A DNA stretch of 64,000 bases from an uncultured cyanobacterium (GCA_963749915.1 CAVVOP010000008.1:352001-416000), one strand, 5' to 3'. Shown: positions 11,461 to 55,195, counted from the stretch's first letter. Program-made: numbers and translations. Notes: generated by a model from the letters alone, not told the origin.

Positions 11461-12087
11461 ATGAAAAGCATTTTTAAATTAACAACTCTGATTCTCGTTA
11501 CTCCTTCTTTATTTACCTTCATCTTTCCTGACAACGCTCAAGCTAACCAATTTGACGTTTGTCTCAAGCAATTAACCGCCAGCGGGGTTGACGTGGAAGA
11601 AGCTCAAACCGGTTGTGCAGATGCCTTAGTGCCTAGGGAATTATCGACTTGTGTGCGTACTATTAGTAATAACACAGAGATAACAGCCATCGATGCTCTT
11701 AAAAGTTGCTATCAGGTAAGAAGACCAGTAGATATGGGTAATTGTGTGGTTAGTATTAACAAGAATAGCATTTTAACCCTCGCAACTAAAAGTAATATGG
11801 AGAAAAAAGAAACAGAAGCGACAACAACTAATATGGAGAAAAAAGAAACAGAAGCGACAACAGAAACTAGTCAATTTGCTGCCACCGACGAGAATACCTT
11901 AATAACTAAAGTATCCCCCGTGATGATGGCATTAAACACCTGCCAAGCGAGTCTTTTACCTGCTAGACATTCTGAATGTGTAATCGCTTTATCTCGTACT
12001 CCACAAGTAACCGATCCCACCAAAGCAATGGAAACCTGTTTAAGTGCGGAAGATTTCCCTAGAGATTTATTTCCTTCTTACCAATAG
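11461..12087 (+). CDS. Hypothetical exported Cys-rich protein
   Basis: Signal-peptide-like N-terminus (AQA), regularly spaced Cys; ATG at 11461 chosen. Confidence 0.7.
   Translation: MKSIFKLTTLILVTPSLFTFIFPDNAQANQFDVCLKQLTASGVDVEEAQTGCADALVPRELSTCVRTISNNTEITAIDALKSCYQVRRPVDMGNCVVSINKNSILTLATKSNMEKKETEATTTNMEKKETEATTETSQFAATDENTLITKVSPVMMALNTCQASLLPARHSECVIALSRTPQVTDPTKAMETCLSAEDFPRDLFPSYQ
11794..11862 (+). repeat. 36-bp in-frame tandem duplication (NMEKKETEATT x2)
   Basis: aatatggagaaaaaagaaacagaagcgacaaca occurs twice with a 36-nt period. Confidence 0.9.
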
Positions 12088-12306
12088 TTAAGGAAGAGGA
12101 AATGGGAAACGGGGAATGGTCAAAATAAATAATTGATAGTTTCTGCATAGGACTTATTTATTTTGATTACCGGTTTTAGTATTCCCTCTCTGCTGAAAAC
12201 GGAGAAAACTTGAACAATTATTCATTAGACCTCTCCAAGAATTACCAAAAACAGGGGTGAAACTATAATGATTTCGTTAATAAATTAGAGTTTCTGGAGA
12301 TTTCTA

Positions 12307-12531
12307 TTATTCTTCGTCCCACTTTTTAACTACAATTATATCACTTACAGGATCTTGCATCGAAAAGCCGAAAGCTAATAATTCTGATTTGAGAAACTTC
12401 CAATCGTCCCCAAATAATAAGGCAATTTTACCGATATTATCATGGGGTTGAATAATTTGTGAATTGACGAGAGAAGATACTTTTTGTTGCAATTTCACCA
12501 TGGGGTGAAGCACTTGCTGCTTATTCCGCAT
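12307..12531 (-). CDS. DUF4327-like small cyanobacterial protein
   Basis: HPMVKLQ...IALL.G..W...K.ELL.FGFSMQDP pattern. Confidence 0.75.
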   Translation of the reverse strand: MRNKQQVLHPMVKLQQKVSSLVNSQIIQPHDNIGKIALLFGDDWKFLKSELLAFGFSMQDPVSDIIVVKKWDEE

Positions 12532-12750
12532 AAAGTTTTTTACTGTTACTAATACTGTTATAATGATTGTTGGTTAATTATTGGCTTAAGCCTTTACGAG
12601 AATAGCCTTTTATTTGCTGATTCTTATAAATCTCGTGATTAATACTTTGTAGCCAACATGGATGATAAGCAAATTTGAGTAGAAAATTATTGCTTATGAA
12701 TAGTCTATCACATCATAACATATTTTGCTAAGATTTTTTTTTAAAACTCC

Positions 12751-12843
12751 TAAGCCTTTAACGGTAAACTATCAACTATCAACGATTAAAGATGACTTAT
12801 TCTCCTAATTCTCAAGATATTCAAACCCTTTTTAATGACATTG
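12751..12843 (+). repeat. Left island-flanking direct repeat: orphan copy of the menG/ubiE 5' end
   Basis: 12792-12843 matches 25074-25125 at 46/52 nt (MTYSPNSQDIQTLFNDI vs MSSSPNSQDIQTLFNDI); upstream tcaactatcaac and taagcctt also shared. Confidence 0.88.
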
Positions 12844-12907
12844 TCATTAAGATTATCAAAAGGTAGAATATTTAAGATAAGAACAGCACTTCAAAAAATT
12901 TAAACCC

Positions 12908-14089
12908 ATGCCAGAGAATAAACAGCCAGGAAAATACGATGCGGTAATAAAAAGAGTACCTCAAGCTCCTATGTATGGGGCGGTTATAGGAGGAATACAA
13001 GGGGTTAAACGAAGGTTTGAGTCGGCAAAGGATGTAAATTTAAAAGCAGAAATCCTGCAAGAAGCCTTACAGTACGAAAATCAAGGAATAGAGTTTATCT
13101 TACAGGTAGTTCAAGCTACTAATGAACAAGAAATCTTAGCGGTAGCCTATGATTTACTAAAGGAGAAACAAGAGTCAACAATTCAGAATGTATTATTAAC
13201 TCTGAAAAGAAAACATCCTTGGTTAGATTTACCTCAGTTTAGTTTCGACACAGTGAAGGTAAACCGTAAAGGAGAAATCATTAAACGAGAACAAAAAACC
13301 GCCCGTTACTACCGAGAAGATTTAGGAAAGGGTATTAATCTGGATATGGTTTATATTCAAGGTGGTACATTTATGATGGGAAGTCCAGACGGAGAAGGCA
13401 ATGACAGTGATGAAAAACCGCAACATCAGGTGACAGTATCATCATTTTTTATGGCTAAATATCCCGTAACTCAAGCCCAGTGGAAAGCCGTAGCATCATT
13501 ACCTAAAATTGAGAGAGACTTAAAATTAGATCCTTCTCGGTTTAAAGGAGATAATCGCCCTGTAGAAAAAGTTAACCGGTATGATGCCGTAGAATTCTGT
13601 CACCGTTTATCAAAACTAACAGGGAGAGAATACACCCTACCCAGTGAAGCTAAGTGGGAATATAGTTGTCGGGCGGGAACAACCACAACCTTTAACTGTG
13701 GTGAAACCATTACCACTGATTTAGCCAACTATAACGGTACAGATGAATATTACGGCAGTTATGCTGATGAACCGAAAGGGCAGTATAGGCAAGGAACAAC
13801 CTCTGTAGGCTCATTTCCTGCTAATGATTGGGGATTATCGGATATGCACGGCAACGTTTGGGAATGGTGTGCAGATGAATGGCATGGTAATTATAACAAT
13901 GCCCCTACAGATGGTAATGTGTGGACTGGGGGAGAAAGTAATCGTTGTGTAATGCGTGGTGGTTCATGGTTCTACAGCCCGAATAACTGCCGTTGTGCTA
14001 ACCGTCTCAACGACAACCGTGATTGCGACTACTACTGCAACAACGGCAACGGTTTTCGTGTTATGTCTATTTTCGGGAGGACTTCATAG
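12908..14089 (+). CDS. FGE-sulfatase (CLec-fold) domain protein; DGR target gene 1
   Basis: GGTFMMGS, PVTQAQW, LPSEAKWEYSCRAG, DMHGNVWEWC, RGGSW...GFRV; NNC/AAC-rich 3' end; followed by Avd. Confidence 0.9.
   Translation: MPENKQPGKYDAVIKRVPQAPMYGAVIGGIQGVKRRFESAKDVNLKAEILQEALQYENQGIEFILQVVQATNEQEILAVAYDLLKEKQESTIQNVLLTLKRKHPWLDLPQFSFDTVKVNRKGEIIKREQKTARYYREDLGKGINLDMVYIQGGTFMMGSPDGEGNDSDEKPQHQVTVSSFFMAKYPVTQAQWKAVASLPKIERDLKLDPSRFKGDNRPVEKVNRYDAVEFCHRLSKLTGREYTLPSEAKWEYSCRAGTTTTFNCGETITTDLANYNGTDEYYGSYADEPKGQYRQGTTSVGSFPANDWGLSDMHGNVWEWCADEWHGNYNNAPTDGNVWTGGESNRCVMRGGSWFYSPNNCRCANRLNDNRDCDYYCNNGNGFRVMSIFGRTS
13970..14050 (+). other. DGR variable region VR1
   Basis: 27 codons between RGGSW and GFRV, dominated by NNC codons (aac, gac, tac, tgc, ggc). 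Confidence 0.8.
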
Positions 14090-14185
14090 CCCTTTGTTCT
14101 TTGTCCCTCTTGCCCTTTGTCTTGTATTTCTTTCTTTCTTTCTTTCTTTCTTTCTGTATTTTTTGTAGTTAGTCATGAGAATTTT

Positions 14186-14497
14186 ATGAAAGAATTATCC
14201 GTAATTCAAAAGACCTATGATTTGATAAAATGGTATGTACCAATAATTGAGAGACTACCAAAAACCCATAAGTTTACTATCGGAGATCGAATCATTAATA
14301 ATTTGTACGATTTATTAGAAGAATTAATTAAAGCAAAATATGCCCAAGAAAAACTAACTAGGTTGGAATCCTTAAATAATGTTTTAGACATATTACGGTA
14401 TCAAACAAGATTATTACTGGATTTTGAATTAATCTCTTTAAAACGTTATGAGTATGTTTGTCAACTGTTTCAAGAAATAGGCATAGAAATTGAATAA
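14186..14497 (+). CDS. avd: DGR accessory protein Avd (four-helix bundle), apparently C-terminally truncated
   Basis: MKELSVIQKTYDLIKWYVP...LPK.HKF.IGDRI...L..LRYQTRL pattern; ends EIGIEIE* without the usual GGW tail; directly behind a VR-bearing gene. Confidence 0.85.
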   Translation: MKELSVIQKTYDLIKWYVPIIERLPKTHKFTIGDRIINNLYDLLEELIKAKYAQEKLTRLESLNNVLDILRYQTRLLLDFELISLKRYEYVCQLFQEIGIEIE

Positions 14498-14568
14498 ATA
14501 AATGACTAAAATATGGTCACTACAAAATATAATATTGATGAGAGCAAAAGTAAATAGTAATTAAAACT

Positions 14569-16221
14569 ATGGCAGAAAATGGGAAGCAACCGGGAAAATA
14601 TGATGCCGTTATCACCAATAACCCCCACCAGAAATTAATCGAATCCTTAGATTTAAAATTACGCGCTCGTTATCCCTTACTCTACATCGTTGCCGTAGAA
14701 GAAGAACCAGTGGAACAAATTTTAGCCCAAGTAGCCTATCAATCGCAACCCCAACGAGAATTATTAATGTGGGATATTGTCAACGGTTGGAATGATAACA
14801 GTAAAGACAAAAACGCTGTTATGGGGGCATTGATGCGTATTAGTCAAACTGACGGCAATAAACCCTGTATATTTGTCCTCAAAGATTTAAACTTTATCCT
14901 CAAACAACCTGATAGTGCCAGTAACGCTCCCGTCATCAGGGCTTTAAAGAATTTAGGCAAAGAGCTTAAATATCGCCGTCAAACCTTGATTATAACTGGT
15001 CATACTGCGGTTGTACCTACGGACTTATCGGAAGAAATCACCGTCATTGACTTTCCCCTTCCTGAGATGACCGAAATAGATTACTTAATTAGAGAGTTAG
15101 TAGTACCAGAAAAACTGAACCTCAGTGGTTTAGGCAAAGAGCAATTAGTGAAAGCCTGTCTAGGATTGAGTCGTACCCGTATCCGTAGGGTTTTAGCTTC
15201 CGCCCTCGCCGCTAAACAGGAGGTAAATGAGGGTGATATTGACATTGTTTTAGAAGAGAAAAAACAAGCCATCCGTCAAACGGGTATCCTTGAGTTTTAT
15301 TCCTCCCATGAATCCTTGAAAAGTGTCGGCGGTTTGGATAGACTCAAACAGTGGTTACAAATCAAAAAGGATAGTTTTACCGAAAAAGCCCGTAAATATG
15401 GCATTCCTAACCCGAAAGGCTTATTTTTAGTCGGTATTCAAGGTACAGGAAAATCTTTATCGGCTAAAACCATCGCTAATGAATGGCGTTTACCCATGCT
15501 ACGGTTAGATACAGGACGATTATTTGGGGGCATTGTCGGCGAAAGTGAAAGTAAAACCCGTCAAATGATTCAATTAGCAGAAGCCATTTCACCCTGCGTA
15601 TTGTGGATGGATGAGATTGATAAAGCCTTTGGTAACATTTCAGGGGGCGGTGACGGAGATTCAGGCACATCTCGCCGTGTTTTTGGTACTTTAATTACTT
15701 GGATGCAGGAAAAAACTAGCCCTGTTTTCATCGTTGCCACCGCGAATAATGTGGAGATTTTACCCGCCGAATTACTGAGAAAAGGACGTTTTGACGAGAT
15801 ATTTTTCATTAACTTACCTAACCATCGAGAGCGCATGGAAATCTTTAAAGTTCATTTACAACGGTTACGCCCTCAACGACTCAGGGATTTTGACTTAAAA
15901 GAATTAGCTACTGCCACAGAAGAATTTAGTGGTGCAGAAATTGAGCAAGTTATTATTGATGCCATGAGTTTCGCCTTTGCCGATGAAAGTGCAGAAGCAA
16001 GGGATTTTACTAATACAGATATATTAACCGCCTGTGGTGATACCGTACCATTGGCAAGGGTAGCCACCAAACAGATTGAAGAGTTAAAACAATGGGCAGT
16101 GAAAACAGGTGCTAAAACTGCTTCTAAGGATATTGAATTAGAAAAGGAATTAGAAACTTATCGCCAACAAAAGGGCATTCGCCAGAGTCAATATCTCGAT
16201 GTAGATCCTCCCCAAAGTTAA
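14569..16221 (+). CDS. Ycf46-like AAA+ ATPase
   Basis: Walker A GIQGTGKS, Walker B WMDEIDK, ATAN, LLRKGRFDEIFF; N-terminal RARYPLLYI. Confidence 0.9.
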   Translation: MAENGKQPGKYDAVITNNPHQKLIESLDLKLRARYPLLYIVAVEEEPVEQILAQVAYQSQPQRELLMWDIVNGWNDNSKDKNAVMGALMRISQTDGNKPCIFVLKDLNFILKQPDSASNAPVIRALKNLGKELKYRRQTLIITGHTAVVPTDLSEEITVIDFPLPEMTEIDYLIRELVVPEKLNLSGLGKEQLVKACLGLSRTRIRRVLASALAAKQEVNEGDIDIVLEEKKQAIRQTGILEFYSSHESLKSVGGLDRLKQWLQIKKDSFTEKARKYGIPNPKGLFLVGIQGTGKSLSAKTIANEWRLPMLRLDTGRLFGGIVGESESKTRQMIQLAEAISPCVLWMDEIDKAFGNISGGGDGDSGTSRRVFGTLITWMQEKTSPVFIVATANNVEILPAELLRKGRFDEIFFINLPNHRERMEIFKVHLQRLRPQRLRDFDLKELATATEEFSGAEIEQVIIDAMSFAFADESAEARDFTNTDILTACGDTVPLARVATKQIEELKQWAVKTGAKTASKDIELEKELETYRQQKGIRQSQYLDVDPPQS

Positions 16222-16278
16222 AGTGCTAAAATTGAATTATCGTAGAGATTTCCTTTACATGCAAATAAATATTTTAGT

Positions 16279-16767
16279 TTATTCTCCCGCTTGTTCAATG
16301 GCACAATCTATAAGATTTTGACTTAAATAAATATGAGACTTTTTCATGTTATCGATACAGTTACGGATAGAAATATTATATCCTTTCTGTTTGGCTTTCA
16401 GAAGTATGCCGAGGCAACCCGTAAGAGAAAGTCCATTGAGTCTTGCTATTCTTCTGCCTATGGCTTCATCAATGCAAACTGTCGTAATTTTTTTATCTAA
16501 GGCGAGTTGAATTACGGAAGCCTCTCCCAAATCTAAGGAATTTAGTAAAAAGGGTGAAATCTGGAGAGGTGATGATTGTTTTTGTAAGTAAGTATCGCTA
16601 TTAAATGCAGAAATAGCAAAACCAATTTTACCCCCAGCTAATATTTCTTGACAGACTTCATAGGGTACTAAAACTTGTTTGTAAAGATAGCTCAAAATTT
16701 TTAAATCCCCCAATGCGGAAACTAAAGCTATTATGGGGGAAGTATTGATAACAATAGTGTTAGGCAT
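16279..16767 (-). CDS. DUF3368-type PIN-domain protein (putative toxin)
   Basis: IVINTSPII, LDLGEASVI.LA, IDE..GRR.AR..GL..TG.LGIL. Confidence 0.85.
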   Translation of the reverse strand: MPNTIVINTSPIIALVSALGDLKILSYLYKQVLVPYEVCQEILAGGKIGFAISAFNSDTYLQKQSSPLQISPFLLNSLDLGEASVIQLALDKKITTVCIDEAIGRRIARLNGLSLTGCLGILLKAKQKGYNISIRNCIDNMKKSHIYLSQNLIDCAIEQAGE

Positions 16768-17011
16768 TGGCTAAGTCTGATAATAATTCTTCTGGGGTTA
16801 AGTCAATCATTGATACACCATAATCAGCTAGTTTGAGTAAAAATGTTACTCTATCAACTCCTAATAATATTCCCGCCATTCCTGATGAAATTCGTTTCAT
16901 TTCAAATAGTTTTACTACCATTGCCCATTTTGCTTCTTGTTCAAATTCTTGAGGTGTTTGATTTAAAGCGTCGGGAAAAGTTGACGGATATTCGATAGTT
17001 ATTTGTGCCAT
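16760..17011 (-). CDS. UPF0175 family protein (putative antitoxin)
   Basis: KLFE..RISSG.A..LLG..R..FL HTH pattern; overlaps the PIN gene by 8 nt. Confidence 0.85.
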   Translation of the reverse strand: MAQITIEYPSTFPDALNQTPQEFEQEAKWAMVVKLFEMKRISSGMAGILLGVDRVTFLLKLADYGVSMIDLTPEELLSDLANA

Positions 17012-17067
17012 CTGTCTTTAAATTTGATGTTTTTCACTCTATTTTACTCCCCTCACATCAATTTTAC

Positions 17068-17292
17068 CTATCGGCGGTAACAGACTTTTATAACGCATTG
17101 GGGCAATTTTTAAGTTATCGGTTGGTTTTAAGCCAAATTGAACCAAATAGAGCCTTATATTTAGCTATTCCTTTAGATACATATTTAGAGCTATTTGAAT
17201 CGGATTTTGGAGAATTGGTGATGAAAGAATATGAATTAAAATTAATTATCTATAATTCTAATAATGGAGATTTAACTCAATGGATAAATTAA
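17068..17292 (+). pseudogene. xisH: XisH family protein, C-terminal half only
   Basis: F..ALGQFL.YR...EP.R.LYLAIP...W; N-terminal half absent; overlaps xisI start. Confidence 0.8.
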
Positions 17293-17615
17293 GCTTTTAT
17301 CGAGAAGCTATTAAGAGATTATTAATCGAATATACCGCATCGGAAAAATATGATGATGATTGCGAATCTCAATTAATTTTTGATGAAAAACAAGACCATT
17401 ATTTATGGTTAGAATTAGGTTGGGATGACTATAAAAGAATTTATTATACTGTAATTCACTTTGATATTAAAGATGGTAAGATATGGTTACAGCAAAATGC
17501 CACTGACTTAAACCCTGCGGAGGATTTAATTGAATTAGGAGTCAACCGAGAGGATATTATTTTAGGTTTACAACCCCCTTATAAACGCCCCTATACTAAT
17601 TATGGAGTGGCTTAA
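17280..17615 (+). CDS. xisI: XisI family protein
   Basis: MDKL..YR..I, FDE..DHY...GW, H.DIKDGKIW.Q.N.T, DI.LG..PPY.R..T.YGVA. Confidence 0.9.
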   Translation: MDKLSFYREAIKRLLIEYTASEKYDDDCESQLIFDEKQDHYLWLELGWDDYKRIYYTVIHFDIKDGKIWLQQNATDLNPAEDLIELGVNREDIILGLQPPYKRPYTNYGVA

Positions 17616-17648
17616 CCATTCATTACTAAATTATTTATCGGATCAACT

Positions 17649-18022
17649 ATGTCACATTTTACTACTATCAAAGTTCAAATCAAAAACGGCGAGATTTTAC
17701 ATAAAACCTTACAAGAGTTGGGTTATACCGTCGAAACTAATACCAACGTCAGAGGCTATCAAGGCATAAAAACCGAAGCTGAATATGTCATTCGTCAAAA
17801 TAATGGTTATGATTTAGGCTTCCGCCGTCAAGGGGATAATTATGAGTTAGTGGCGGACTTTTGGGGTGCTAAAATTGACCAGACTAATTTATTAATGACA
17901 TCTCTCAGAAATATGCTCATTATACTTTGATGGAAGAGGTGGAAAAGCAAGGTTTTAATATCGAAGAAGAGCAAACTTTGGAAGACGGCACTTTGCGGTT
18001 AGTCGTAGGTAGATGGGTTTAA
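17649..18022 (+). pseudogene. DUF1257 (Ycf35-like) protein with a 1-nt frameshift near 17886
   Basis: MSHFTTIK, YDLGFR, YELVADFW; continues in another frame as FINDISQKYAH...EDGTLRLVVGRWV*; could be a sequencing error. Confidence 0.85.
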
Positions 18023-18245
18023 CTCAGTTGGAAATAAAGTTATTGATGGAGATAAGTAACAAAAGTAATAAGTAATAAGTAATGGGTAATGAGTCTTTCA
18101 ACTTGTCCTCGGTGTCTCGTCTTCACCATTTTTCTTCTATCGAACTGAGCTAACCGAGCAGTATTGGGAGATGTCTAATATAATTTATTCTAAATTCGAG
18201 AATGTTGTCTTTAGTTATAAGTATCTTTACAATCTTCTTCGCATA

Positions 18246-18277
18246 AAGCCCATCGCCTTTAGGCATGGGAATGTCAA
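18246..18277. mobile_element. IS200/IS605-like terminal hairpin remnant
   Basis: aagcccatcgcctttaggcatgggaatgtcaa resembles the subterminal hairpin of this IS group; no transposase nearby. Confidence 0.45.
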
Positions 18278-18330
18278 GCCTAATTGTGATATGATCTTGG
18301 TTTAGGACTTAATTAAAAGATAATTTTTGT

Positions 18331-18562
18331 ATGTCGGCAAAAGATAAGTTTCACCAAGCCGTAAAAAATGCTTTAATCAAGGAACAATGGAAAATTACCC
18401 ATGATCCTTTATTATTGACTTTGACAATGCCCGATTCAAATTGATTTAGGGGCAGAGTCTTTGATAGCGGCGGAGAAATCTTCTCGTAAAATTGCCGTTG
18501 AAGTCAAAAGTTTCCTTGGTAATTCAACTGTCTATGAGTTTCATTTAGCCGTAGGGCAATAA
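18331..18562 (+). pseudogene. xisH: XisH family protein, N-terminal part, frameshifted and truncated
   Basis: MSAKDKFHQAVKNAL.KE.W.ITHDP...IDLGAE..IAAEK...KIAVEVKSF...FHLAVGQ*. Confidence 0.85.
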
Positions 18563-18618
18563 AAAACCATAGATTATAATATAATTCTAAATTAAAAATA
18601 AATGAAACACTAACGCCC

Positions 18619-19737
18619 ATGCCAGAGAATAAACAGCCAGAGAAATACGATGCGGTGATAAAAAGAGTACCTCAAGCTCCTATGTATGGGGCGGTTATAG
18701 GTGGAATACAAGGGGTTAAACGAAGTTTTGAGTCGGCACAGGATGTTAATTTAAAAGCAGAAATCCTCCGAGAAGCGTTACAGTACGAAAATCAAGGAAT
18801 CGAGTTTATTCTACAAGTATTAGAATCACAGGATTTTGAGTTACAGTGGAAAGCCTATGAGATACTAAAGAATAGACCTGAAACTCAAATCAAGGCAAAA
18901 TTCGATAATTGTTTGCCTGTCTTCAGTTTCGACACAGTGAAGGTAAACCGTAAAGGAGAAGTAATTAAACGAGAACAAAAAACCGCCCGTTACTACCGAG
19001 AAGATTTAGGAAAGGGTATTAATCTGGATATGGTTTATATTCAAGGTGGTACATTTATGATGGGAAGTCCACACGGAGAAGGTTATAGTGATGAAAAACC
19101 GCAACATCGGGTGACAGTACCATCATTCTTTATGGCTAAATACCCCGTCACTCAAGCCCAGTGGAAAGCCGTAGCATCTGAGAGAAACTTAGAATTAAAT
19201 CCTTCTGAGTTTAAAGGAGATAATCGCCCTGTGGAAATGGTTAACTGGTATGATGCGGTAGAATTCTGTCACCGTTTATCAAAACTAACAGGGAGAGAAT
19301 ACACCCTACCCAGTGAAGCCAAGTGGGAATATAGTTGTCGGGCGGGAACAACCACAGCCTTTAACTGTGGTGAAACCATTACCACTGATTTAGCCAACTA
19401 TGACGGTACAGATGAATATTACGGCAGTTATGCTGATGAACCGAAAGGGGAGTATAGGGAAGGAACAACCCCTGTAGGGTCATTTCCTGCTAATGATTGG
19501 GGATTATATGATATGCACGGTAACGTCTGGGAATGGTGTGCAGATGAATGGCATGAAGATTATAACAATGCCCCTACAGATGGTAATGTGTGGACTGGAG
19601 GAGAAAGTAATTGTAGTGTAATGCGTGGTGGTTCATGGCACGACGGGCCGAGTGGCTGCCGTTGTGCTAGCCGTCTCAGCTACGACCCCTACAACTACGG
19701 TTTTCGTGTTATGTCTATTTTCGGGAGGACTTCATAG
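18619..19737 (+). CDS. FGE-sulfatase (CLec-fold) domain protein; DGR target gene 2, paralog of 12908-14089
   Basis: Near-identical N-terminus and FGE domain to copy 1; divergent linker and variable region. Confidence 0.9.
   Translation: MPENKQPEKYDAVIKRVPQAPMYGAVIGGIQGVKRSFESAQDVNLKAEILREALQYENQGIEFILQVLESQDFELQWKAYEILKNRPETQIKAKFDNCLPVFSFDTVKVNRKGEVIKREQKTARYYREDLGKGINLDMVYIQGGTFMMGSPHGEGYSDEKPQHRVTVPSFFMAKYPVTQAQWKAVASERNLELNPSEFKGDNRPVEMVNWYDAVEFCHRLSKLTGREYTLPSEAKWEYSCRAGTTTAFNCGETITTDLANYDGTDEYYGSYADEPKGEYREGTTPVGSFPANDWGLYDMHGNVWEWCADEWHEDYNNAPTDGNVWTGGESNCSVMRGGSWHDGPSGCRCASRLSYDPYNYGFRVMSIFGRTS
19639..19698 (+). other. DGR variable region VR2
   Basis: 20 codons between RGGSW and GFRV; differs from VR1 mostly at codon positions 1-2. 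Confidence 0.78.
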
Positions 19738-19809
19738 CCCTTTGTGCTTTGTCCCTCTTGCCCAATGTCTTGTATTTCTTTCTTTCTATCTTGTATTTTT
19801 TGTAGTTAG

Positions 19810-19937
19810 GGTTTGCCCCCTAAATCCCCCAATTCTGGGGGAAAGAACAATTGAACTCCCTCATATTTGGGGACTGGGGGGCTTATCCGAACAGTATTGG
19901 GAAAAATCCCCCTTACCAAGGGGGATTTAGGGGGATC
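19810..19937. repeat. Cyanobacterial C/G-tract palindromic intergenic repeats
   Basis: ccccctaaatcccccaattctggggga ... cccccttaccaagggggatttaggggg hairpins. Confidence 0.65.
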
Positions 19938-20081
19938 AAAGACTTTGAAAACAGGTTCTTAGGGTTTGAATTAGACAAATAATACTTATTAAATATGGTT
20001 TAGTAAATCAATTGTGATACAGTTTAAGTCAATTTTATTTCTTTTACTCTTAATTCTTTACTCTATCTTCATCAGTGAAAT

Positions 20082-21023
20082 CTATGATTGGTGCAAGATT
20101 TGAGTATGAGAATTTAACCAGTTAATTAAATCATCGAGACATTGAAAATCAAAAATAGCATCCCCTAAATCTTCAATTTGGCATAAGGATAAATCATTAA
20201 TTTGCCTTTCCAACTCAGGAGAAAACTCCCCGAAACGTTTTTTAATTTGACGCTTAACGAGATTTTGTTCACCTTGGTGTAACCCACGCTGTAAGCCGAT
20301 TTCAATGCCTTCTTCCATCCAACTGGTGACAATTTTCATAATTTGTTCTTCCTCTGCTAATCCTATTTGTTTTAATTCGGTTTCAAATTCTTGGGTTTCC
20401 GTTAGATTTAATTTTAAATAAGTATCCACAAATCCTGAAATTAACTCTATTCTAGCGGGATCTAAACTTAAAGTAGCTAACATTCTCAGACATTCTAATT
20501 TTACCTTAGCTCTTTCCTCTGATTTAAAGTCCATTTTTGCCATTAAAGCGGCGGCGATAGGATTGGGTTGATTTAAAAATTGTCGCCAATTAAGTCGATT
20601 TAACTGGATAGTCGTGTAGTTAAATTCGAGGATTTTTTTATCAGGAAATGTAACTAAATATTAATTTGTTTCCTCTCGTTTTGGCTTATCATAGGAAAAG
20701 ATAACTACAGGATAAATTGGTAAACGATATTTAGCATCTAAACGAGCAAAATAATGAAACATTCGCCGTTCAAATTCGCTCTGATTATAGGCTTGATTTT
20801 CAATATGGATGAGGAAAAAACGGTTTTCTTCTTGCCATTTTACTTGGGCGAGTAAGTCGATTTTTCGTTTATCTCCTGCGGTTACATCGATAAAAACTTC
20901 TTCAGGTAAAAAAGTTAAACTATCTTTTGATATATATTGTAAAATATCGGGAATAAATAATTCAATAAATTCCCAGAAAAATGTCTGGATTAATTCTTTA
21001 AAAAGACGGTCATGATCTATCAT
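20082..21023 (-). pseudogene. Rpn family / DUF4351 nuclease-like protein with one in-frame stop
   Basis: DHDRLFKELI, IHIENQ, RMFHYFARL; TAA at 20661-20663 is followed in frame by YLVTFPDK...NPIAAALMAKM and a DUF4351-type tail. Confidence 0.85.
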
Positions 21024-21126
21024 ATTTGTTCATAACTTATAGGTTGATGATTTTTAGTAATAATAATATCTTTCCCTTTAAAAGAAGTATAATTAAAAAT
21101 GTATAAAATCAAAAACAAAGTCACCC

Positions 21127-21339
21127 ATGGCTGAATATCAACGAATAGAGTACCAAATCGGCAAAGACGGTAAAATCACAGAAAGGGTAATTGATGCCAG
21201 TGGTAATAGTTGTCTGCAACCTACCCAAGCATTAGAAGAAGCATTAGGAGAAATAGAATCAAGGGAATTACTCCCTGAATATTACGAAGGAGAAGAAAAC
21301 TTAACCACCGATAATATTCAACGATCGAAATCATTGTAA
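21127..21339 (+). CDS. DUF2997 family small protein
   Basis: IEY.IGKDGKI.E.V...SG..C...T..LE.ALG......L.PEYY pattern; accompanies DUF1257 and AAA genes. Confidence 0.85.
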   Translation: MAEYQRIEYQIGKDGKITERVIDASGNSCLQPTQALEEALGEIESRELLPEYYEGEENLTTDNIQRSKSL

Positions 21340-21555
21340 GCTAGTTCACATCTCAATACTGCTTGGTTAGTCGCTCAAGTTATTTTGTCCGCCCCCTAAA
21401 TCCCTGACAAGGGTAGGTTTTTTACATTTGGGTTGAGACAAGACAAGGAAGGAACGAAGGACAGCAGACAAGGGAGATAGTAGAAACGAAAAATGGTCTT
21501 TTTAGCCATTTATGTATTATTTGTAACAAAATGTTTCTTAAACGATTCCCCTCTT

Positions 21556-22125
21556 CCCAATACTGCTCGGTTAGTGGTAAAAACGTTACGGTGAGGTTAA
21601 AGTAATGAGTAATAAGTAATGAGTAATAAGTAATCAGTAATAAGTAATGAGTAATAAGTAATGAGTAATAAGTAAATATTTATTGTTTATAGAGACAGAA
21701 GATTTTGCTATCAGAATTATTAAAGCTTATTCCGAACTGAACAAAAGGAACTTTGATGATGCAGCTAAAGTTTTATCAAAACAATTTTTAAGAAGTGGGA
21801 CATCAATTGGGGCTAATTGTTCAGAAGCAAAATATGCACAGTCGAAGAAGGATTTATTAACAAATATTCTATAGCTTTAAAAGCAGCAAATGAGACCCTT
21901 TATTGGATAAAAATAATGATTAAATCAGAGCTAGTATCACAATCTAAATTTCAAAAAATGATAGAAGAGAATGAAAGAATTATTAAAATATTAATGAGTT
22001 CAATCAATAAATTAAAAGAAAAACAATCTAGTTAAATTTTTATTCATTACTCATTACTCATTACTCATTACTCATTACTTCATCTTCACAGTAAGATTTT
22101 CGGGCAAATCCCTCGCAGTATTGGG
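21556..22125. mobile_element. Cassette with long imperfect inverted arms and heptamer arrays enclosing a four-helix-bundle gene
   Basis: cccaatactgc/gcagtattggg termini; aaaacgttacggtgaggttaaagtaatgag complementary to ctcattacttcatcttcacagtaagatttt; AGTAAT(G/A) arrays versus CATTACT arrays. Confidence 0.65.
21683..22035 (+). pseudogene. Four-helix-bundle (23S rRNA IVP-like) protein, frameshifted near 21853
   Basis: KQFLRSGTSIGAN..EA..AQS..DF..K..IALK.A.ET.YW split across two frames. Confidence 0.85.
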
Positions 22126-22670
22126 ACGCAACCACCAAGACACCGCAGAACAAGCCAACGCCGAACCAGCCACACAACGGAAAGAAACCACGGGAACAAA
22201 CCCCCAACGAAAGAACAGCTTCTTTTCACCCGTTCTCATTTTTCACCGTGAACTTTGATCTGTGCGCAAGGCAAAAATAAATAAATGGAGCGTAGCCGTT
22301 ACGAAGACTATAACTAAGTACAACTAAACTATGGCGGCGGAGCGACTTCAATTAAGGTGTTGCCTAGTCGCACCACAGAACGGGTATACTAGAAAAGCGG
22401 TCGTTCATTATCCCCACAGTTCCAGCCACGCAGTGACCTAGGGTCGGAAACAGTAGCCTTTGAGATAAACCGAAGGCAAAAAGACTATGTTTTTAACTGT
22501 ATTTCAATCTAAATATTAATATATATTAAGAAAAATTAACTAAAAAAATCTCTGATTAATTAAATCTTATTAAATGATTAGAATATGAGGAAAGTTCAGT
22601 ATATTTACTGTTGTTAGTAAATATAAAATTGGGAACTATAAGTCTATAGCAAACTAGATTTATACTCTGA

Positions 22671-22757
22671 CTTATTACTCATTACTCATTACTCATTACT
22701 CATTACTCATTACTTCATCTTCACAGTAAGATTTTCGGGCAAATCCCTCGCAGTATT
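22671..22757. repeat. Direct duplicate of the right arm of the 21556-22125 cassette
   Basis: (cattact)n tcatcttcacagtaagattttcgggcaaatccctcgcagtatt is identical to the 22045-22122 copy apart from heptamer number. Confidence 0.85.
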
Positions 22758-22828
22758 TATCTGCACTATTTTTAAGGTATTAAGGCTCAAATATTTTTAC
22801 AGTTTTTTAACATTAAATAGGATAAACA

Positions 22829-23395
22829 ATGGATTTTAATTATCTATTAACAAGCATATTTTTATGGCTAATAATTAGCCTTTTATTATTGACAGTTTTT
22901 GCTTCCTCATCACCTTCTAATCAAGGTAAATTTAAAGATTTTAAAGACAATAAATCTCAGGATTTAGATAACGATTCGGGTAAAGAAGAAATCATCGCCC
23001 TTCAACAACAATGCCAAAGATTAAGAGAGGAATTAGAAGCCCAATCTAACCAGTTAAAAGATGATTTTCGTAGTGACACTTTTGAACAATTACAGCCTTT
23101 ATTAACTAACTATCCCACCGCCCGTGAGATGGCAAAAGCTAAACCAGATTTACCCGCTAAAAATCTAGTATCTTTGTTCACATCCTTAGAAAACTTGTTA
23201 GAAAGTTGGGGTTATGAAACCATTGGCACACCGTGGGAAGAAGTTAATTATAATCCTCAAATTCATCAAGGTGACAGTGATGATATTGAAGTAGGGGAAT
23301 CGGTTTATATCCGTTTTGTAGGCTACCGTGACGGCGATAATATTCTTTATCCTGCGAAAGTAAGTCTCAATCTTCCTCCCAATTTAAAAAGTTAA
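22829..23395 (+). CDS. Membrane-anchored GrpE-like protein
   Basis: N-terminal TM, coiled coil, IG..WE.V.YNPQ.HQ...V.IRFVGYR....L.PAKV GrpE-like beta domain; precedes Hsp70-like gene. Confidence 0.75.
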   Translation: MDFNYLLTSIFLWLIISLLLLTVFASSSPSNQGKFKDFKDNKSQDLDNDSGKEEIIALQQQCQRLREELEAQSNQLKDDFRSDTFEQLQPLLTNYPTAREMAKAKPDLPAKNLVSLFTSLENLLESWGYETIGTPWEEVNYNPQIHQGDSDDIEVGESVYIRFVGYRDGDNILYPAKVSLNLPPNLKS

Positions 23396-23429
23396 TTTCT
23401 AATTCCTAATTCCTAATTCCTAATTATTT

Positions 23430-25028
23430 ATGACTACTGTAGCGATTGATTTTGGCACAAGTAACACCGTTGTTAGTATTATCGAACCCGATACCAAACA
23501 AGCAAAATCCCTCCGTTTTGAGAAAATGTCGAGGGTATTTCGGATGAAACTTAATAACGGCTCAGTGTCAGAAATTCCCGTCATCCCTAGCTTAGTGTTT
23601 ATCAAAGAAGGACATGAATTAATATTAGGAGAACAAGTGCGCACTGGTCGGTTAGGATGTAGTAAGCCTGAACGATTTTTTAAAGCCTTTAAAAGAGATT
23701 TAGCCGCCGAATATCGCTCCCCTACGAAGATAATAGAAGGTAAAGAATACCCATCAGAAGCAGTAGCAGAAATATTTTTAAAAGAAATTTGGCAACAACT
23801 GAAATTACAACATTTAACTCCCTCTCAAGTAATATTTACCGTGCCAGTAGGAGGCTTTGAAAGTTACTCGAATTGGTGTCGTGACTTAGCCACAGGATTA
23901 GGCATTGAAAAAATCCAATTAGTCGATGAATCCACCGCCGCCGCCTTCGGTTATGCCGTTAAAAAGCCCGGTGCTTTAGTTTTAGTAGTGGACTTTGGAG
24001 GGGGTACATTAGACTTAAGTTTAGTGCGTACTGTCGGCACTTCCCCAAAATTAAAAGAATTAAAAGGAGAGGTTTTAGCGAAAACTCAAGCCTATGTGGG
24101 AGGAGAAGATATTGATATTTGGTTAATGGAAGATTACTTGCAAAAACAGGGTATTTCTAAAAACGATTTAAGTAGTGTTAGTTGGCAGAATTTATTAGAA
24201 ATAGCCGAGCGTCTTAAGATACAGTTATCCTTTAAAGAAGAAGCAAAGGAAAGTTGGTTAGATGAGGAAACCTTTACTTCCTATGATATTGCTTTAAATC
24301 GACCACAACTCAAAGAAATATTAGAAACTCAACAACTATTACCTCAATTACGGGATTGTCTCGATGAAGTTATTCAGATGTCAATGGGTAAGGGCATCAA
24401 TAAAAAACACATTGAGAAAGTAGTTTTAGTAGGCGGCAGTTGTTTAATTGCATCTGTAAGAGAATTAATTACTTCTTATTTTGGACCAGAAAAAGTCCTG
24501 ATCAATAAACCCTTTGAAGCGGTGTCTCAAGGGGCTTTAACTGTTGGTTTATTAGAAAACGTAGATGACCATTTATACCATAGCTACGCCCTTCGTACAT
24601 GGAATCCCTTGACTCAGGAAAATGATTATGATCCTTTATTTCCATCAGGCATACAATATCCCTGTGAATTAGAACATCCTTTAGTTCTTCAATGTGCCAA
24701 TAATGGACAAGATGCCATTTACCTTGATATTGGGCAAGTGGCAGAAATGGGAAAAGCGGAGTTAAGTTATGATGCTTCGGGTAAAATGACCAGTGGTATG
24801 GTTAAATCTAAAACTACTTACAAATCCCTCACCTATGAACTAGACTGGCAAGGAAATGTCGTCAAATCCGCTTGTATCGCTAAATTACATCCTCTTGGCA
24901 CTGTGGGAAAAGATCGTCTTAAACTGCATTTGGAAGTGGATGAGGGGCGAATGTTATTGACTACTGTTACGGATATTCTCACCCAACAAGTATTAGTCTA
25001 TAAGAAAGCGATCGCTCGCCTTGATTAA
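23430..25028 (+). CDS. Hsp70/DnaK-like family protein (non-canonical)
   Basis: AIDFGTSNT, DESTAAA.GY, VVDFGGGTLD, LVGGSC motifs; C-terminus unlike canonical DnaK. Confidence 0.88.
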   Translation: MTTVAIDFGTSNTVVSIIEPDTKQAKSLRFEKMSRVFRMKLNNGSVSEIPVIPSLVFIKEGHELILGEQVRTGRLGCSKPERFFKAFKRDLAAEYRSPTKIIEGKEYPSEAVAEIFLKEIWQQLKLQHLTPSQVIFTVPVGGFESYSNWCRDLATGLGIEKIQLVDESTAAAFGYAVKKPGALVLVVDFGGGTLDLSLVRTVGTSPKLKELKGEVLAKTQAYVGGEDIDIWLMEDYLQKQGISKNDLSSVSWQNLLEIAERLKIQLSFKEEAKESWLDEETFTSYDIALNRPQLKEILETQQLLPQLRDCLDEVIQMSMGKGINKKHIEKVVLVGGSCLIASVRELITSYFGPEKVLINKPFEAVSQGALTVGLLENVDDHLYHSYALRTWNPLTQENDYDPLFPSGIQYPCELEHPLVLQCANNGQDAIYLDIGQVAEMGKAELSYDASGKMTSGMVKSKTTYKSLTYELDWQGNVVKSACIAKLHPLGTVGKDRLKLHLEVDEGRMLLTTVTDILTQQVLVYKKAIARLD

Positions 25029-25073
25029 GCCTTTTACGATTAAATATTAATTGTCAACTATCAACTATTAAAA

Positions 25074-25775
25074 ATGAGCTCTTCTCCTAATTCCCAAGAT
25101 ATTCAAACTCTTTTTAATGATATTGCACCAGTTTATGATCAAATGAATGATTGGTTAAGTTTCCGTCTCCACCGTATTTGGAAGTTAATGACCGTAAAAT
25201 GGAGTAGTCCACAACCTTATGAAACTGCGTTAGATCTCTGTTGTGGTACTGGTGACTTAACTTTTTTAATGGCAAAACAACTCAAAAAAGGGAGAGTTAT
25301 TGGCGTTGATTTTTCCTCGCAGTTGTTGGCAGAGGCACAAAAAAAACAAAAATTTAAGTCTTTAAATAGTGAAATTCGGTGGTTAGAAGCAAATGTTTTA
25401 AGTTTGCCTTTTGACGATAATTCTTTTGATTGTGCCACTATGGGTTATGGGTTGAGAAATGTTACGGATATTTGTGCTTGTTTACAGGAAATTCAACGAG
25501 TTTTAAAACCTAATAGTAAAGTAGCTATTTTAGATTTTCATAAACCTACACAGGATTGGGTTGCCAATAGTCAAAAATGGTATTTAGATAACGTGGTAGT
25601 GAAAATTGCGGATTTTTTAGGCACTCAATCAGAATATGCTTATATTTATCCTAGTTTAGAGCGTTTTCCTAATGGCGAAACCCAAATTCAACTAGGTTTA
25701 AATGCTGGTTTTAGTGCGGGTATCCATTATCCTTTATTTGGTGGTACAATGGGAGTTTTAGTATTAACTAAATAG
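25074..25775 (+). CDS. menG: UbiE/MenG family methyltransferase (demethylphylloquinol methyltransferase)
   Basis: F..IAPVYD.MND.LS...HR.WK, LDLCCGTGD, GYGLRNV. Confidence 0.9.
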   Translation: MSSSPNSQDIQTLFNDIAPVYDQMNDWLSFRLHRIWKLMTVKWSSPQPYETALDLCCGTGDLTFLMAKQLKKGRVIGVDFSSQLLAEAQKKQKFKSLNSEIRWLEANVLSLPFDDNSFDCATMGYGLRNVTDICACLQEIQRVLKPNSKVAILDFHKPTQDWVANSQKWYLDNVVVKIADFLGTQSEYAYIYPSLERFPNGETQIQLGLNAGFSAGIHYPLFGGTMGVLVLTK

Positions 25776-25916
25776 AGGTAATTCAAACATTATTAAGCTG
25801 ATAAATTTGCTAAAAAAAGTTAGTTACTGTCGTGGTAATAAATCATTGACAAGAAAAAATTGATAATTCAATTACCTTAAAAAAAATATAAATTTAAGAT
25901 TAATTAGTTAGGGATA

Positions 25917-27152
25917 ATGCCGTTAGAATTTTATAATTGGTGGCAAATTGCGCTTCCCCCCGTAGCAGGTTCAGTTATTGGATATTTTACTAATGATTTA
26001 GCGATAAAAATGCTATTTCGTCCTTATAAACCTTTATATTTTTTCAACAAGCAATTACCTTTTACTCCAGGTTTAATTCCGAGAAATCAAAAGAGGTTGG
26101 CGAAAAGAGTTTCTGACACTATTATGAACTCTTTGTTAACCCCAGAAGAATTACAAAAATTGGCGAAAAGATTATTACAGACTGAACGAGTAGAGGGAGC
26201 AATTTTATGGTTACTACAGTTAACTTTACAGCAAATAAAAGAGGATAAAGAACAAAAGTCAGCAAAAATATTAGCGGATATTTTAAGAGATTTATTTGGG
26301 GATGCTTTACCGAAATTATTAAGAGTTTTAGCAAGAAAAGATGATTTTTTACAAAGTCAAATTGATCAGATCTTTGACCGCATTTTATTAGAGTTTAAGT
26401 TAACGGAAATTCAAGCTAGACAATTATCTGATTGGTTATTACAAGTTATTTTTGCACCGGATTTATTACGTCAAGCTTTAGTTAATTTTTTGACGGATCG
26501 AAATATTAGTGTGATTGATGAAGGTTTTAAGGAAAAAACAAGCGGTACTTATTGGGTTGTAGCGAATTTATTTGGGGTCAAAAATGCTTTAAGTCGTTTA
26601 CGGACTTTCTGTTTAGACGAGAAAGAAATGGCTAATACTCGCATTCAAGAGTTACTTTTATCTTTGGAAATTAGAAATAGATTAAAGGAATTTTTTTTGA
26701 ATTTTTCTTTACAAAATTTACCGGTAGCAACGGTTAAACAATTAAGACAAACCACTAATAAAGCTGTTCGGGATTATATTCAAGAAAAAGGTGCAGATTT
26801 TTTACATGAATTTGGTTTATCGATTGATTGGGATAAGGTATCAATTTTAATTGTTAATCGTTTACAAGCCTCTGATGTAGTTAATACTTCTTTAAGTTTA
26901 ATTAGTGAAGAATTGGCTTTAATTTTAGAGCGTTATTTAGAGGAAGATTTAGAAAAAATTGTCGCCCACGCTATCCCGATTTTATCCATTGATCAGGTTA
27001 TTATTGAAAGAATAAAAGCCACTACTCCTGAACATTTAGAAGAAGCAACTCAAAGTATTGTTAAAAGTGAGTTACAGGCGATCGTTAATTTAGGAGGAAT
27101 TTTAGGTTTAATTATTGGTTTAATTCAAAGTATTTTATTATTAATAACCTAA
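25917..27152 (+). CDS. DUF445 family membrane protein
   Basis: [32 protein letters not shown]. Confidence 0.88.
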
Positions 27153-48146: not shown

Positions 48147-48441
48147 CTGGTTCTAACGGATTTTGTGGTCATTAGAAATCAAGGGCGATCGCCGACACTG
48201 CAATACTTTCACGGCACGAAAGAATCAGCTCGACTCTATGTACCCTCGATGGCACTGGTGTGGAATTTTCATCCCTATTCTTCAAGAACTTGCTCATCAG
48301 ACTCTGAGCGGATTTCACCCTTTAAAGACCTCAATGGATTTCAATACCATCACAACTGGCTGCACAATTTGCTAATTGCCAGTTCGATGAATGGTCGAAG
48401 ACCCCTAAAAACTGGTTGACCACAAAATCCGTTAGAACCAG
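48147..48441 (+). mobile_element. 295-bp MITE-like element, copy 1
   Basis: 25-bp terminal inverted repeat ctggttctaacggattttgtggtca; second copy inverted at 54901. Confidence 0.88.
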
Positions 48442-48715
48442 AATCGAAAACTAATAGTACCACGAAGGAAGTTCTGGAAGTCTTACGAGGATGCTGGAAG
48501 CATACATCTGTATCCGTAGAATCAGTGTAGGTAGTTCACCATGTTGACTGTAATGGAGATATAATTTATTTATGTTCATTTGTCTCCCAAATATGTTTCT
48601 TAAGGGTATTACCCATTGTTAATAAATCCTTGTCAATGTATGATAATACCATGGTCGCAGTTTTTGAGTTTTATTCTACATGTAAAGAGGATATCCAATA
48701 TTCTCAACACCATTC

Positions 48716-54869: not shown

Positions 54870-54900
54870 ATTAATCATAATACTACTATGCAATCAAGTT

Positions 54901-55195
54901 CTGGTTCTAACGGATTTTGTGATCAACCAGTTTTTAGGGGTCTTCGACCATTCATCGAACTGGCAATTAGCAAATTGTGCAGCCAGTTGTGATGGTATTG
55001 AAATCCATTGAGGTCTTTAAAGGGCGAAATCCGCTCAGAGTCTGATGAGCAAGTTCTTGAAGAATAGGGATGAAAATTCCACACCAGTGCCATCGAGGGT
55101 ACATAGAGTCGAGCTGATTCTTTCGTGCCGTGAAAGTATTGCAGTGTCGGCGATCGCCCTTGATTTCTAATGACCACAAAATCCGTTAGAACCAG
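54901..55195 (-). mobile_element. 295-bp MITE-like element, copy 2 (inverted)
   Basis: Reverse complement of 48147-48441; two mismatches noticed. Confidence 0.88.

Follow-up and report, generated by a model that had tools for sequence, protein, structure and literature searches.

A conserved cyanobacterial Hsp70-like/AAA gene core with tagged, exchangeable partners: candidate substrate receptors for a chaperone machine

Bacterial conflict systems in which a constant nucleotide-dependent core serves variable partners have been described as NTP-dependent 'ternary' systems, together with the effector-associated domain (EAD) principle, in the parts available to us of Kaur et al. 2020 (PMC7159879) and 2021 (PMC8195603). 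The former also covers GAP1-N2 GTPase systems with HSP70 and GrpE, in which paired GTPases, GAP1 and FNIII/DnaJ partners are found, mostly in actinobacteria and firmicutes. In cyanobacteria, a housekeeping cluster of DUF2997, DUF1257 and fed7 has been published (PMC4284462, seen in part). Here we analyse a 64-kb stretch of DNA from an uncultured cyanobacterium (GCA_963749915.1, CAVVOP010000008.1:352001-416000; hereafter the window), which holds an island encoding a Ycf46-type AAA ATPase, DUF1257, DUF2997, a GrpE-like and an Hsp70-like protein along with two C-type-lectin (CLec) proteins. The genome examined comprises 4.7 Mb in 34 contigs, and positions are those of the window, which is cyanobacterial; the closest named record of the Hsp70-like gene is from Geminocystis (86%). 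A preliminary description, made from the sequence alone, read the locus as a co-oriented backbone, target1-avd-AAA-DUF1257-target2-DUF2997-GrpE-like-Hsp70-like, with diversified lectins as possible recognition subunits of an ATPase/chaperone machine. All eight genes were indeed recovered on the plus strand and in that order (Table 1). What had been overlooked is an N-terminal tag common to both CLec proteins, of which a brief version opens the AAA protein.

The five-gene core and its tagged partners

The distribution of the core was assessed in 41 closer relatives and in 111 class-wide genomes of at least 95% completeness, the own genome included and a few genomes shared between the samples. 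Among the 41 relatives, 10 genomes carry the AAA subfamily with identities of at least 60% (in one, a partial copy at a contig end), while the near-universal paralogues reach at most 53%; partial matches at 61-63% in two genomes (G011:C14 and G019) were assigned to the housekeeping paralogue by their neighbours. The Hsp70-like gene is found in 11 of these relatives, including all 10, and the tag in 10. The class-wide sample gives a sharper picture: 30 genomes carry the AAA subfamily and 29 the Hsp70-like gene, all 29 within those 30, and the tag occurs in 28 genomes, 27 of them AAA-positive, leaving 80 with none of the three markers. Positives span 12 families, and the co-occurrence persists although the genes often lie far apart in closed genomes. 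The one tag-bearing genome outside the AAA-positive set has the tag alone and is assembled in 720 contigs (G052). Moreover, the AAA subfamily forms one clade of 32 rows in a quick tree (SH-aLRT, a likelihood-ratio branch support, of 99), and whole families retain it (f25, 5/5; f26, 7/7; f27, 7/7), commonly with the genes dispersed and just one tagged partner.

Gene order tells the same story. Two genomes (G093 and G054) encode AAA, DUF1257, DUF2997, GrpE-like and Hsp70-like in one tight operon of overlapping genes, in the order of the window, and three others (G059, G137 and G140) hold the five core genes and tagged genes in one cluster. We also collected 26 loci via the Hsp70-like gene, mostly Nostoc-type and many cut by contig ends (L018, a duplicate of L044, was counted once per analysis); these contain GrpE-like in 22 cases, DUF2997 in 19 and AAA plus DUF1257 in 16. 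At least one tagged gene is present in 23 of the 26, with up to seven per locus. In three genomes from a different class of the phylum, too, Hsp70-like and GrpE-like genes are neighbours. Judged from these gene sets, the five genes almost certainly constitute a conserved cyanobacterial system. The linkage suggested in the preliminary description is thereby borne out for the chaperones, since genomes with the AAA subfamily nearly always have the Hsp70-like subfamily (29/30). The proposed enrichment for FGE or diversity-generating retroelement (DGR) targets is not: only 2 of the 93 tagged genes in the 26 loci are of the FGE/CLec type, and no reverse transcriptase (RT) or avd gene was found in any of them.

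The components themselves are distinctive. The island AAA protein belongs to the classical clade (Pfam AAA plus AAA_lid_3, with CDC48/FtsH-like best matches), and no vWA domain is found among the island proteins. The Hsp70-like protein combines an actin-like nucleotide-binding domain with a beta-sandwich substrate domain, as in the Hsp70 superfamily, and its model matches the DnaK fold (Foldseek E 4e-33); the protein modelled was a fusion from a relative, 48% identical to that of the window. It is no canonical DnaK, scoring 89 bits against an NCBIfam cut-off of 648 and lacking the lid helices in the model. The GrpE-like protein is probably its dedicated nucleotide-exchange factor, and at the place of its N-terminal anchor some relatives carry a helix-turn-helix (HTH), or anchor plus HTH. 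No homology was detected between DUF1257 and DUF2997 (probability 0.3%), nor any match of the DUF1257 profile to PDB sequences below E=0.03. Another DUF1257 type, longer at 132-135 aa, is repeatedly found beside AAA genes of the island subfamily (L035, L031, L036, L046, L047, L082). PADLOC 2.0 run on the core genes returned only generic IetA-type AAA and weak Hsp70 matches, and no system-specific model.

The tag spans about 100 residues, with a disordered two-part motif (consensus QPREYDAVLGG…GxVLGGIEGVKxRL; YDAVI…GAVIGG in receptor 1) followed by HEAT-like helices. It matches no Pfam family at cut-off, nothing in NCBIfam and no PDB fold at E<=0.001; Atlas matches stay under 0.9 and are mostly unnamed or HEAT/GUN4-N-like. 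The family is nevertheless large, with 765 clusters at 50% identity (E<=1e-10), and in this genome it is confined to the two island receptor genes. When the C-terminal parts of the best 150 representatives of the family were classed by BLAST to Pfam-checked references, WD40 (48), STM4015/LRR (35) and GUN4 (17) domains prevailed, followed by FGE/CLec (11), pentapeptide (4), two single classes (2), other (24) and short (9). Congruently, in two genomes of the same genus (G005 and G006) the slots beside AAA and DUF1257 hold tag-pentapeptide proteins (3/4 slots). Diversity thus arises mainly by exchange of whole domains behind a constant tag, and the emphasis of the preliminary description on DGRs has to be given up, the avd gene being truncated and a matching template missing from the assembly.

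Several arrangements bear on the function of the motif. Four genes of G140 keep only the bare two-part motif ahead of a CLec domain, and therefore fall under the tag cut-off; since they keep it alone, the two-part motif is apparently the minimal unit. The tagged genes of G059 and G137 read YDPVIGG and FDPVLGG at this place. The first motif also stands on the N-tail of the island AAA protein, where 10 of 14 residues are identical to receptor 1 while 7 of those 10 codons differ, indicating selection on the peptide; the echo recurs in G005, G006, G020, G028 and both G039 copies. Finally, natural fusions of the Hsp70-like protein, the second motif and WD40 are encoded in G029 and G022.

Some further observations concern the tagged genes. 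STM4011-STM4015 clusters (two radical SAM, ATP-grasp, sulfatase-like and LRR proteins) adjoin the core in Nostoc-type loci (L025-L037, L042), and their STM4015 proteins bear the tag, so that a peptide-modification pathway may plug into the machine. Receiver (REC-type) domains are fused ahead of the tag in P0105, P0175, P0207 and P0258, hinting at phosphoregulated docking. The G007 genome (84% complete), from which the core was not recovered, has an isolated tagged gene next to GTPase-like and ATPase-like genes (L068:8089-16803; judged by eye, no library match).

Predicted docking of the tag and its possible purpose

Structure modelling of the pairs, proposed in the preliminary description, favoured a contact between the tag and the Hsp70-like protein. 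The job comprised four chains: the Hsp70-like protein, an intact DUF1257 (from G006), DUF2997 and residues 1-70 of receptor 1. It scored 0.70, whereas the best of three controls reached 0.00 and swapping out the Hsp70-like chain likewise gave 0.00; in calibration, 116 of 157 solved complexes attained the score mark, as did 2 of 215 mismatched pairs. At least 66% of the contacts agree between runs, with partner pLDDT (predicted local distance difference test) of 69 or more. In the model, tag residues 18-40, which contain the second motif, contact residues 388-401, 418-433, 477 and 492-497 at the start of the beta-sandwich domain, a region that by comparison with DnaK we take to be the peptide groove. 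W391, L420, Q427 and D495 of the Hsp70-like protein do not vary across 20 rows. For DUF1257 and DUF2997, the four-chain model lists no confident contact. Binding of the tag to the Hsp70-like protein is hence predicted, and we consider it likely.

These observations can be joined into one mechanism. The island would represent one copy of a conserved machine, a five-gene core with plug-in ligand-binding subunits, in which, as modelled, the lidless Hsp70-like protein takes the second motif of the tag into its peptide groove; each subunit would so be recruited without DnaJ. The GrpE-like protein would reset the nucleotide state and could tether the complex at the membrane, while the AAA protein, probably docking via its own copy of the first motif and assisted by DUF1257 and DUF2997 as cofactors, would unfold or dismantle whatever the WD40, LRR, GUN4, pentapeptide or lectin domain has caught. 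F-box proteins on the SCF core combine a constant box with variable WD40/LRR domains, and the proposed receptor logic resembles theirs, no homology being claimed. The best overall explanation is an Hsp70/AAA remodelling machine served by exchangeable substrate receptors; we give it about as much belief as doubt, and the same balance holds for the narrower proposal that the tagged proteins act as substrate receptors. The 'recognition subunits' of the preliminary description survive in this form because the linkage is not chance and the model supports a contact between variable protein and chaperone; what falls away is a special link to DGR-diversified CLec.

Several points weigh against this explanation. 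The E-value cut-offs were fixed once the gaps in score were apparent, and related genomes do not count as independent. In G093 and G054 a complete core stands without a tagged neighbour, and no tagged gene is found in either genome at E<=1e-15; Nostoc-type, G033, G022 and G011 sequences lack the AAA tail motif. Since DnaK–peptide complexes have already been solved, the pass of the model may merely echo them; moreover, it used four chains and shallow alignments of our own, unlike the calibration set, and AlphaFold2 of a natural fusion left the motif disordered (pLDDT < 50, with 2 of 20 rows covering the motif). The island copy may also be decaying, because its DUF1257 gene is frameshifted by a 1-nt deletion relative to a same-genus copy.

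As to purpose, a defence role is plausible. Toward a conflict role point the patchy distribution, the mobility of the island, the arrays of up to seven genes, the fast domain swaps and a partner repertoire overlapping that of published conflict systems; away from it point the absence of any nuclease, TIR, peptidase or other enzymatic effector among the core and classified tagged genes, the absence of a PADLOC system and the stable retention in three whole families. That the ligands are invader molecules we regard as rather doubtful.

A possible second instance of the machine lies outside the island. For every core gene, a paralogue lies scattered elsewhere in the genome (AAA 50%, DUF1257 49%, DUF2997 37%, GrpE-like 37%, Hsp70-like 34%), and most of the 41 relatives possess the AAA, Hsp70-like and GrpE-like families. 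Ahead of fed7 stands the paralogous DUF2997–DUF1257 pair, both genes lying within 1.5 kb in 24 of 30 loci, and the N-terminus of the ferredoxin Fed7 carries a tandem [FL]EPELGG motif, with at least one copy in 30/30 loci and two in 26/30. This tag-like tandem, written [FLY]EPELGG, was noted behind the housekeeping pair here (L011:9217-9642, G000:C22) and in L098-L127 and L144. A pattern covering both motif types, tuned after seeing those sequences, retrieved only the two receptors and Fed7 from the 3,875 reading frames of this genome. Among five small genomes tried that lack the GrpE-like family, no Fed7 match was found in four. Together, this hints that the scattered housekeeping paralogues form the same machine, a lead rather than a result.

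Taken to its full extent, and quite tentatively, the lead would imply a DnaJ-independent cyanobacterial Hsp70/AAA machine programmed by a short tandem 'aromatic-acid-x-x-LGG' tag and existing in two paralogue sets. One, of the island type, would be a cullin-like surveillance hub with swappable WD40/LRR/GUN4/lectin receptors, some from DGRs; the other would comprise the near-universal, scattered Ycf46, Ycf35, DUF2997, HTH-GrpE and DnaK-like proteins with Fed7 as tagged partner. If so, the long-unexplained plastid genes ycf46 and ycf35 would gain a mechanism, and the Fed7 link would offer a handle on Ycf46/Ycf35 at a cyanobacterial stress checkpoint and in the algal plastids where they persist. 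Two identical AAA plus DUF1257 regions (G000:C20:130k and C22:17k) represent a recent duplication or an assembly artefact.

The strongest competitor holds that the tag is a signal for folding, holding or activation, so that tagged proteins are clients of a private chaperone line and independent once released. The predicted site is after all the normal substrate groove, tagged domains are mostly repeat folds, and Fed7, a redox protein, is no obvious receptor. Yet these genomes also encode such domains without a tag (for instance several FGE genes in G000), the direct WD40–Hsp70-like fusion fits a permanent subunit better than a client, and the gene arrays and fixed-slot domain swaps suggest selection on binding specificity. 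We deem clients an unlikely, though serious, account.

Less probable still is a machine for stress response or photosynthetic protein quality control that takes no part in conflict and represents a surplus paralogue of the Ycf46 stress operon; its difference from the best explanation lies in purpose, the mechanism being the same. The family-wide retention of the AAA gene with often one tagged partner, the lack of effectors and the merely generic PADLOC matches are as expected for such a machine, GUN4 domains are common among the partners, and the Ycf46 operon is induced at a severe-stress checkpoint, according to the part of PMC13683863 consulted. Such a duty sits poorly, however, with presence in only 30 of 111 genomes, with carriage on an island here and at another site in two same-genus genomes, and with a fast turnover of partner domains that overlap the effectors of conflict systems, as far as PMC7159879 and PMC8195603 were available.

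The lectin receptors and the island that carries them

The two receptors of the window are 79% identical. In the 16 codons after RGGSW, nine differ between them, eight of these with the third base unchanged, and none of the seven constant codons contains an A. Such AAY-type variation between constant codons at the end of a C-terminal CLec domain is that of a past or remote DGR target, and by this codon signature both genes were once such targets. The Avd protein scores 122 bits against NCBIfam DivGenRetAVD (cut-off 80) and ends about 10 residues early, without the terminal GGW of the intact Avd of the same genome. Five RVT_1 matches occur in the genome and none in the window; the locus thus lacks an RT, an adenine-only template and an intact Avd. 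A pattern scan of the genome recovered two templates, on C1 and C23, that fit their own targets (12 A/0 non-A, 17/2 and 15/1 mismatches) but differ from the window variable regions by 11-19 non-adenine mismatches plus 5-20 gap columns, and a further DGR-type RT, the third, on C8, is truncated at its end and retains little of its template. No template matching either variable region is present in the 34-contig assembly, where a gap could hide one. Because the C1 and C23 templates misfit and that of the C8 RT is mostly lost, the CLec genes are read as orphan targets in this assembly, and 'hypervariable', the term of the preliminary description, is valid only for a past signature. Public metagenome contigs (four DNA runs) are fragmentary and give no usable cover of the variable regions.

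A similar picture emerges in three other genomes with tagged CLec: two lack a DGR-type RT at E<=1e-30, and in the third neither of two templates matches the two, of four, tagged CLec ends that could be scored. The lectin domains of both subunits would then have been taken from a DGR target whose RT and template left the locus. On the gene maps CLec is one of many interchangeable plugs, here a recent arrival that brought part of its DGR along. In contrast, continuously mutated CLec receptors feeding the ATPase/chaperone, as DGR-driven adaptive recognition would have it, are very improbable. The preserved third bases, the A-free constant codons, the avd gene behind receptor 1 and one intact DGR on C1 are what such a system would leave, but the assembled templates misfit the receptors while their own targets show 0-2 non-adenine positions, avd is truncated, and CLec is a minor partner in loci devoid of RT and avd.

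Other DGR elements of this genome were noted. The complete one (L006:5910-11010, G000:C1) comprises a 1068-aa target, avd, RT and template, with the assembled variable region frame-shifted by a 1-nt insertion. That on C23 (L007:648-2920) has a broken RT, and its template fits both the neighbouring target and a remote one on C21 (L015:8168-11355), which adjoins an apparent ternary-type cluster. A decayed fragment at G000:C5:190088-190509 resembles the window cassette of target end plus avd, with the same 3' constant end, which suggests a third, lost copy; its candidacy as a template was rejected on these grounds.

The island lies, as the preliminary description proposed, between direct repeats, here of 86 nt and 84% alike, which correspond to a duplicated menG 5' end. 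In 5/5 same-genus genomes tested the menG site is empty and the left-flank sequence continues straight into menG; the island is hence read as a roughly 12-kb insert that reconstituted its target gene. Two of these five genomes carry the same system at a different site, and no integrase was seen among the proteins inside the island. The many passengers and broken genes in the island might suggest that unrelated genes accumulated by chance at a hot spot of insertion, but this is already refuted by the co-occurrence counts, which hold even for unlinked genes, and by distant genomes in which core and gene order recur.

Among the passengers, several are split genes (Table 1). The gap that holds the DUF3368, UPF0175, XisH and XisI genes is filled by similar passengers in two same-genus genomes, and an apparent second XisH-like remnant, frameshifted, was seen by eye just upstream of receptor 2 (18330-18560). 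The split four-helix-bundle gene has an identical copy on contig C9. The fragment at 22037-22757 consists of about 550 nt between two 86-nt repeats, has 95-98% copies at C8:877k and C8:888k, and is found at high depth in sediment metagenome contigs, with no Rfam match; within it, 22124-22536 was rejected as a template or group II intron, since it matches neither variable region and has further copies on C8, making it a passenger. An Rfam scan of 12000-26000 gave no match at E<=1, and a promoter/terminator scan gave counts at chance level (47 vs 44.4; 9 vs 9.3). Elsewhere in the window, 297-nt inverted repeats (99%) at 48147-48443 and 54899-55195, 6.5 kb apart and each with 25-nt terminal inverted repeats, are probably ends of a miniature inverted-repeat transposable element or insertion sequence around an invertible or mobile segment.

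Table 1. Coordinates of the island features in the window
Feature	Position	Strand	Remarks
Left boundary repeat	12758-12843	+	Truncated menG 5' end with native upstream region; reads as first MenG residues
Tagged receptor 1	12908-14089	+	N-terminal tag (~residues 1-100) and FGE/C-type-lectin domain; former DGR variable region from 13955
Receptor 1 tag residues 18-40 (second motif)	12959-13027	+	Predicted in Hsp70-like peptide groove (complex model)
avd, C-terminally truncated	14186-14497	+	103 aa; DGR cassette remnant, no adjoining RT or template
AAA ATPase, Ycf46 family, distinct paralogue clade	14569-16221	+	Walker A/B, sensor 1 and arginine-finger motifs intact in second module
Passengers: DUF3368 and UPF0175 pair, partial XisH, XisI	16279-17615	.	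Outside core; pair on minus strand, matched by PADLOC PDC-S70 models
DUF1257 (Ycf35 family)	17649-18022	+	Frameshifted in assembly after ~17887; intact at 124 aa in relatives
Tagged receptor 2	18619-19737	+	Tag and FGE/C-type-lectin domain; former variable region from 19624
Passenger: Rpn/YhgA-like gene, in pieces	20082-21023	-	
DUF2997	21127-21339	+	Directly upstream of GrpE-like gene in related gene maps; in 19/26 related loci
Passengers: heptamer repeats, split four-helix-bundle gene, repeat-bounded mobile fragment	21599-22757	.	
GrpE-like, N-terminal membrane anchor	22829-23395	+	Pfam GrpE E=0.002, below cut-off; hydrophobic N-terminal segment
Hsp70-like protein	23430-25028	+	Nucleotide-binding domain and beta-sandwich substrate domain, no helical lid
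Right boundary repeat	25040-25125	+	Gives 5' end to intact menG (25074-25775)

Relation to described systems

If the proposed machine holds, five genes of unknown or vague function are joined in one testable assembly in which peptide and groove are named, and a large tag family without a model in the libraries scanned gains a context. Should the tagged proteins be receptors, bacteria would own a modular Hsp70-based substrate-receptor system, with specificity altered by domain swapping and sometimes by DGR mutagenesis. No description of the linkage or the tag was found in the literature searched (subscription journals, bioRxiv supplements and primary Ycf46 papers being outside its scope), nor in the parts seen of PMC9239167, PMC13683863, PMC3564720 and bioRxiv 10.1101/2025.10.13.678797. 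Ycf46 is absent from the main text of PMC7159879, and DUF1257, DUF2997 and Ycf46 from the 12 of 13 supplementary files of PMC7159879 and PMC8195603 that were searched.

The island AAA protein differs from housekeeping Ycf46 in its separate clade, its patchy occurrence, its clustering with a chaperone pair and its tie to tagged genes. With DnaK–DnaJ–GrpE the system shares the Hsp70 fold, the retained ATP-site motifs and the adjoining GrpE-like gene; unlike there, the lid is missing, the interdomain linker is altered, no DnaJ is found among the island genes, and the membrane- or HTH-bearing GrpE-like protein stays below the Pfam cut-off. Cyanobacterial DGRs, in the passages seen of Vallota-Eastman 2020 (PMC7517822) and Doré 2024 (PMC10907252), likewise place a variable C-terminal CLec on another N-terminal module and include avd and remote or orphan targets, whereas the window receptors are without RT or matching template; the present N-terminal module and its Hsp70/Ycf46 context do not feature in those passages, and neither main text mentions Hsp70 (0 occurrences). 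With the GAP1-N2 systems, as far as the source was seen, the locus shares the presence of its own Hsp70 and GrpE in a putative conflict setting. Paired GTPases, GAP1 and FNIII/DnaJ partners are all absent from the island, and no GAP1/GTPase pairs were recognised in the related gene maps, labelled with our own queries only.

The likeness is greatest to the ternary/EAD systems, within what was accessible of the two Kaur papers. Their core is MoxR-vWA or DO-GTPase/GAP1, unlike the Ycf46-type AAA, DUF1257, DUF2997, GrpE-like and lidless Hsp70 proteins here; EADs are homotypic helical domains, whereas the present tag, in the model, binds a different protein by way of a linear motif and matches no described EAD family; and no enzymatic effector was seen here. 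In both, however, a constant chaperone/NTPase core is combined with variable genes joined by a small shared domain; this domain is also borne by a core component or bypassed by fusion to the core, as in the first motif on some AAA tails and the Hsp70-like–WD40 fusions; and the partner domains overlap (FGS, GUN4, beta-propeller, pentapeptide and HEAT). Thus, the system is real and seemingly undescribed, failing membership in each of the systems compared and sharing its theme with the EAD-coupled ternary systems.

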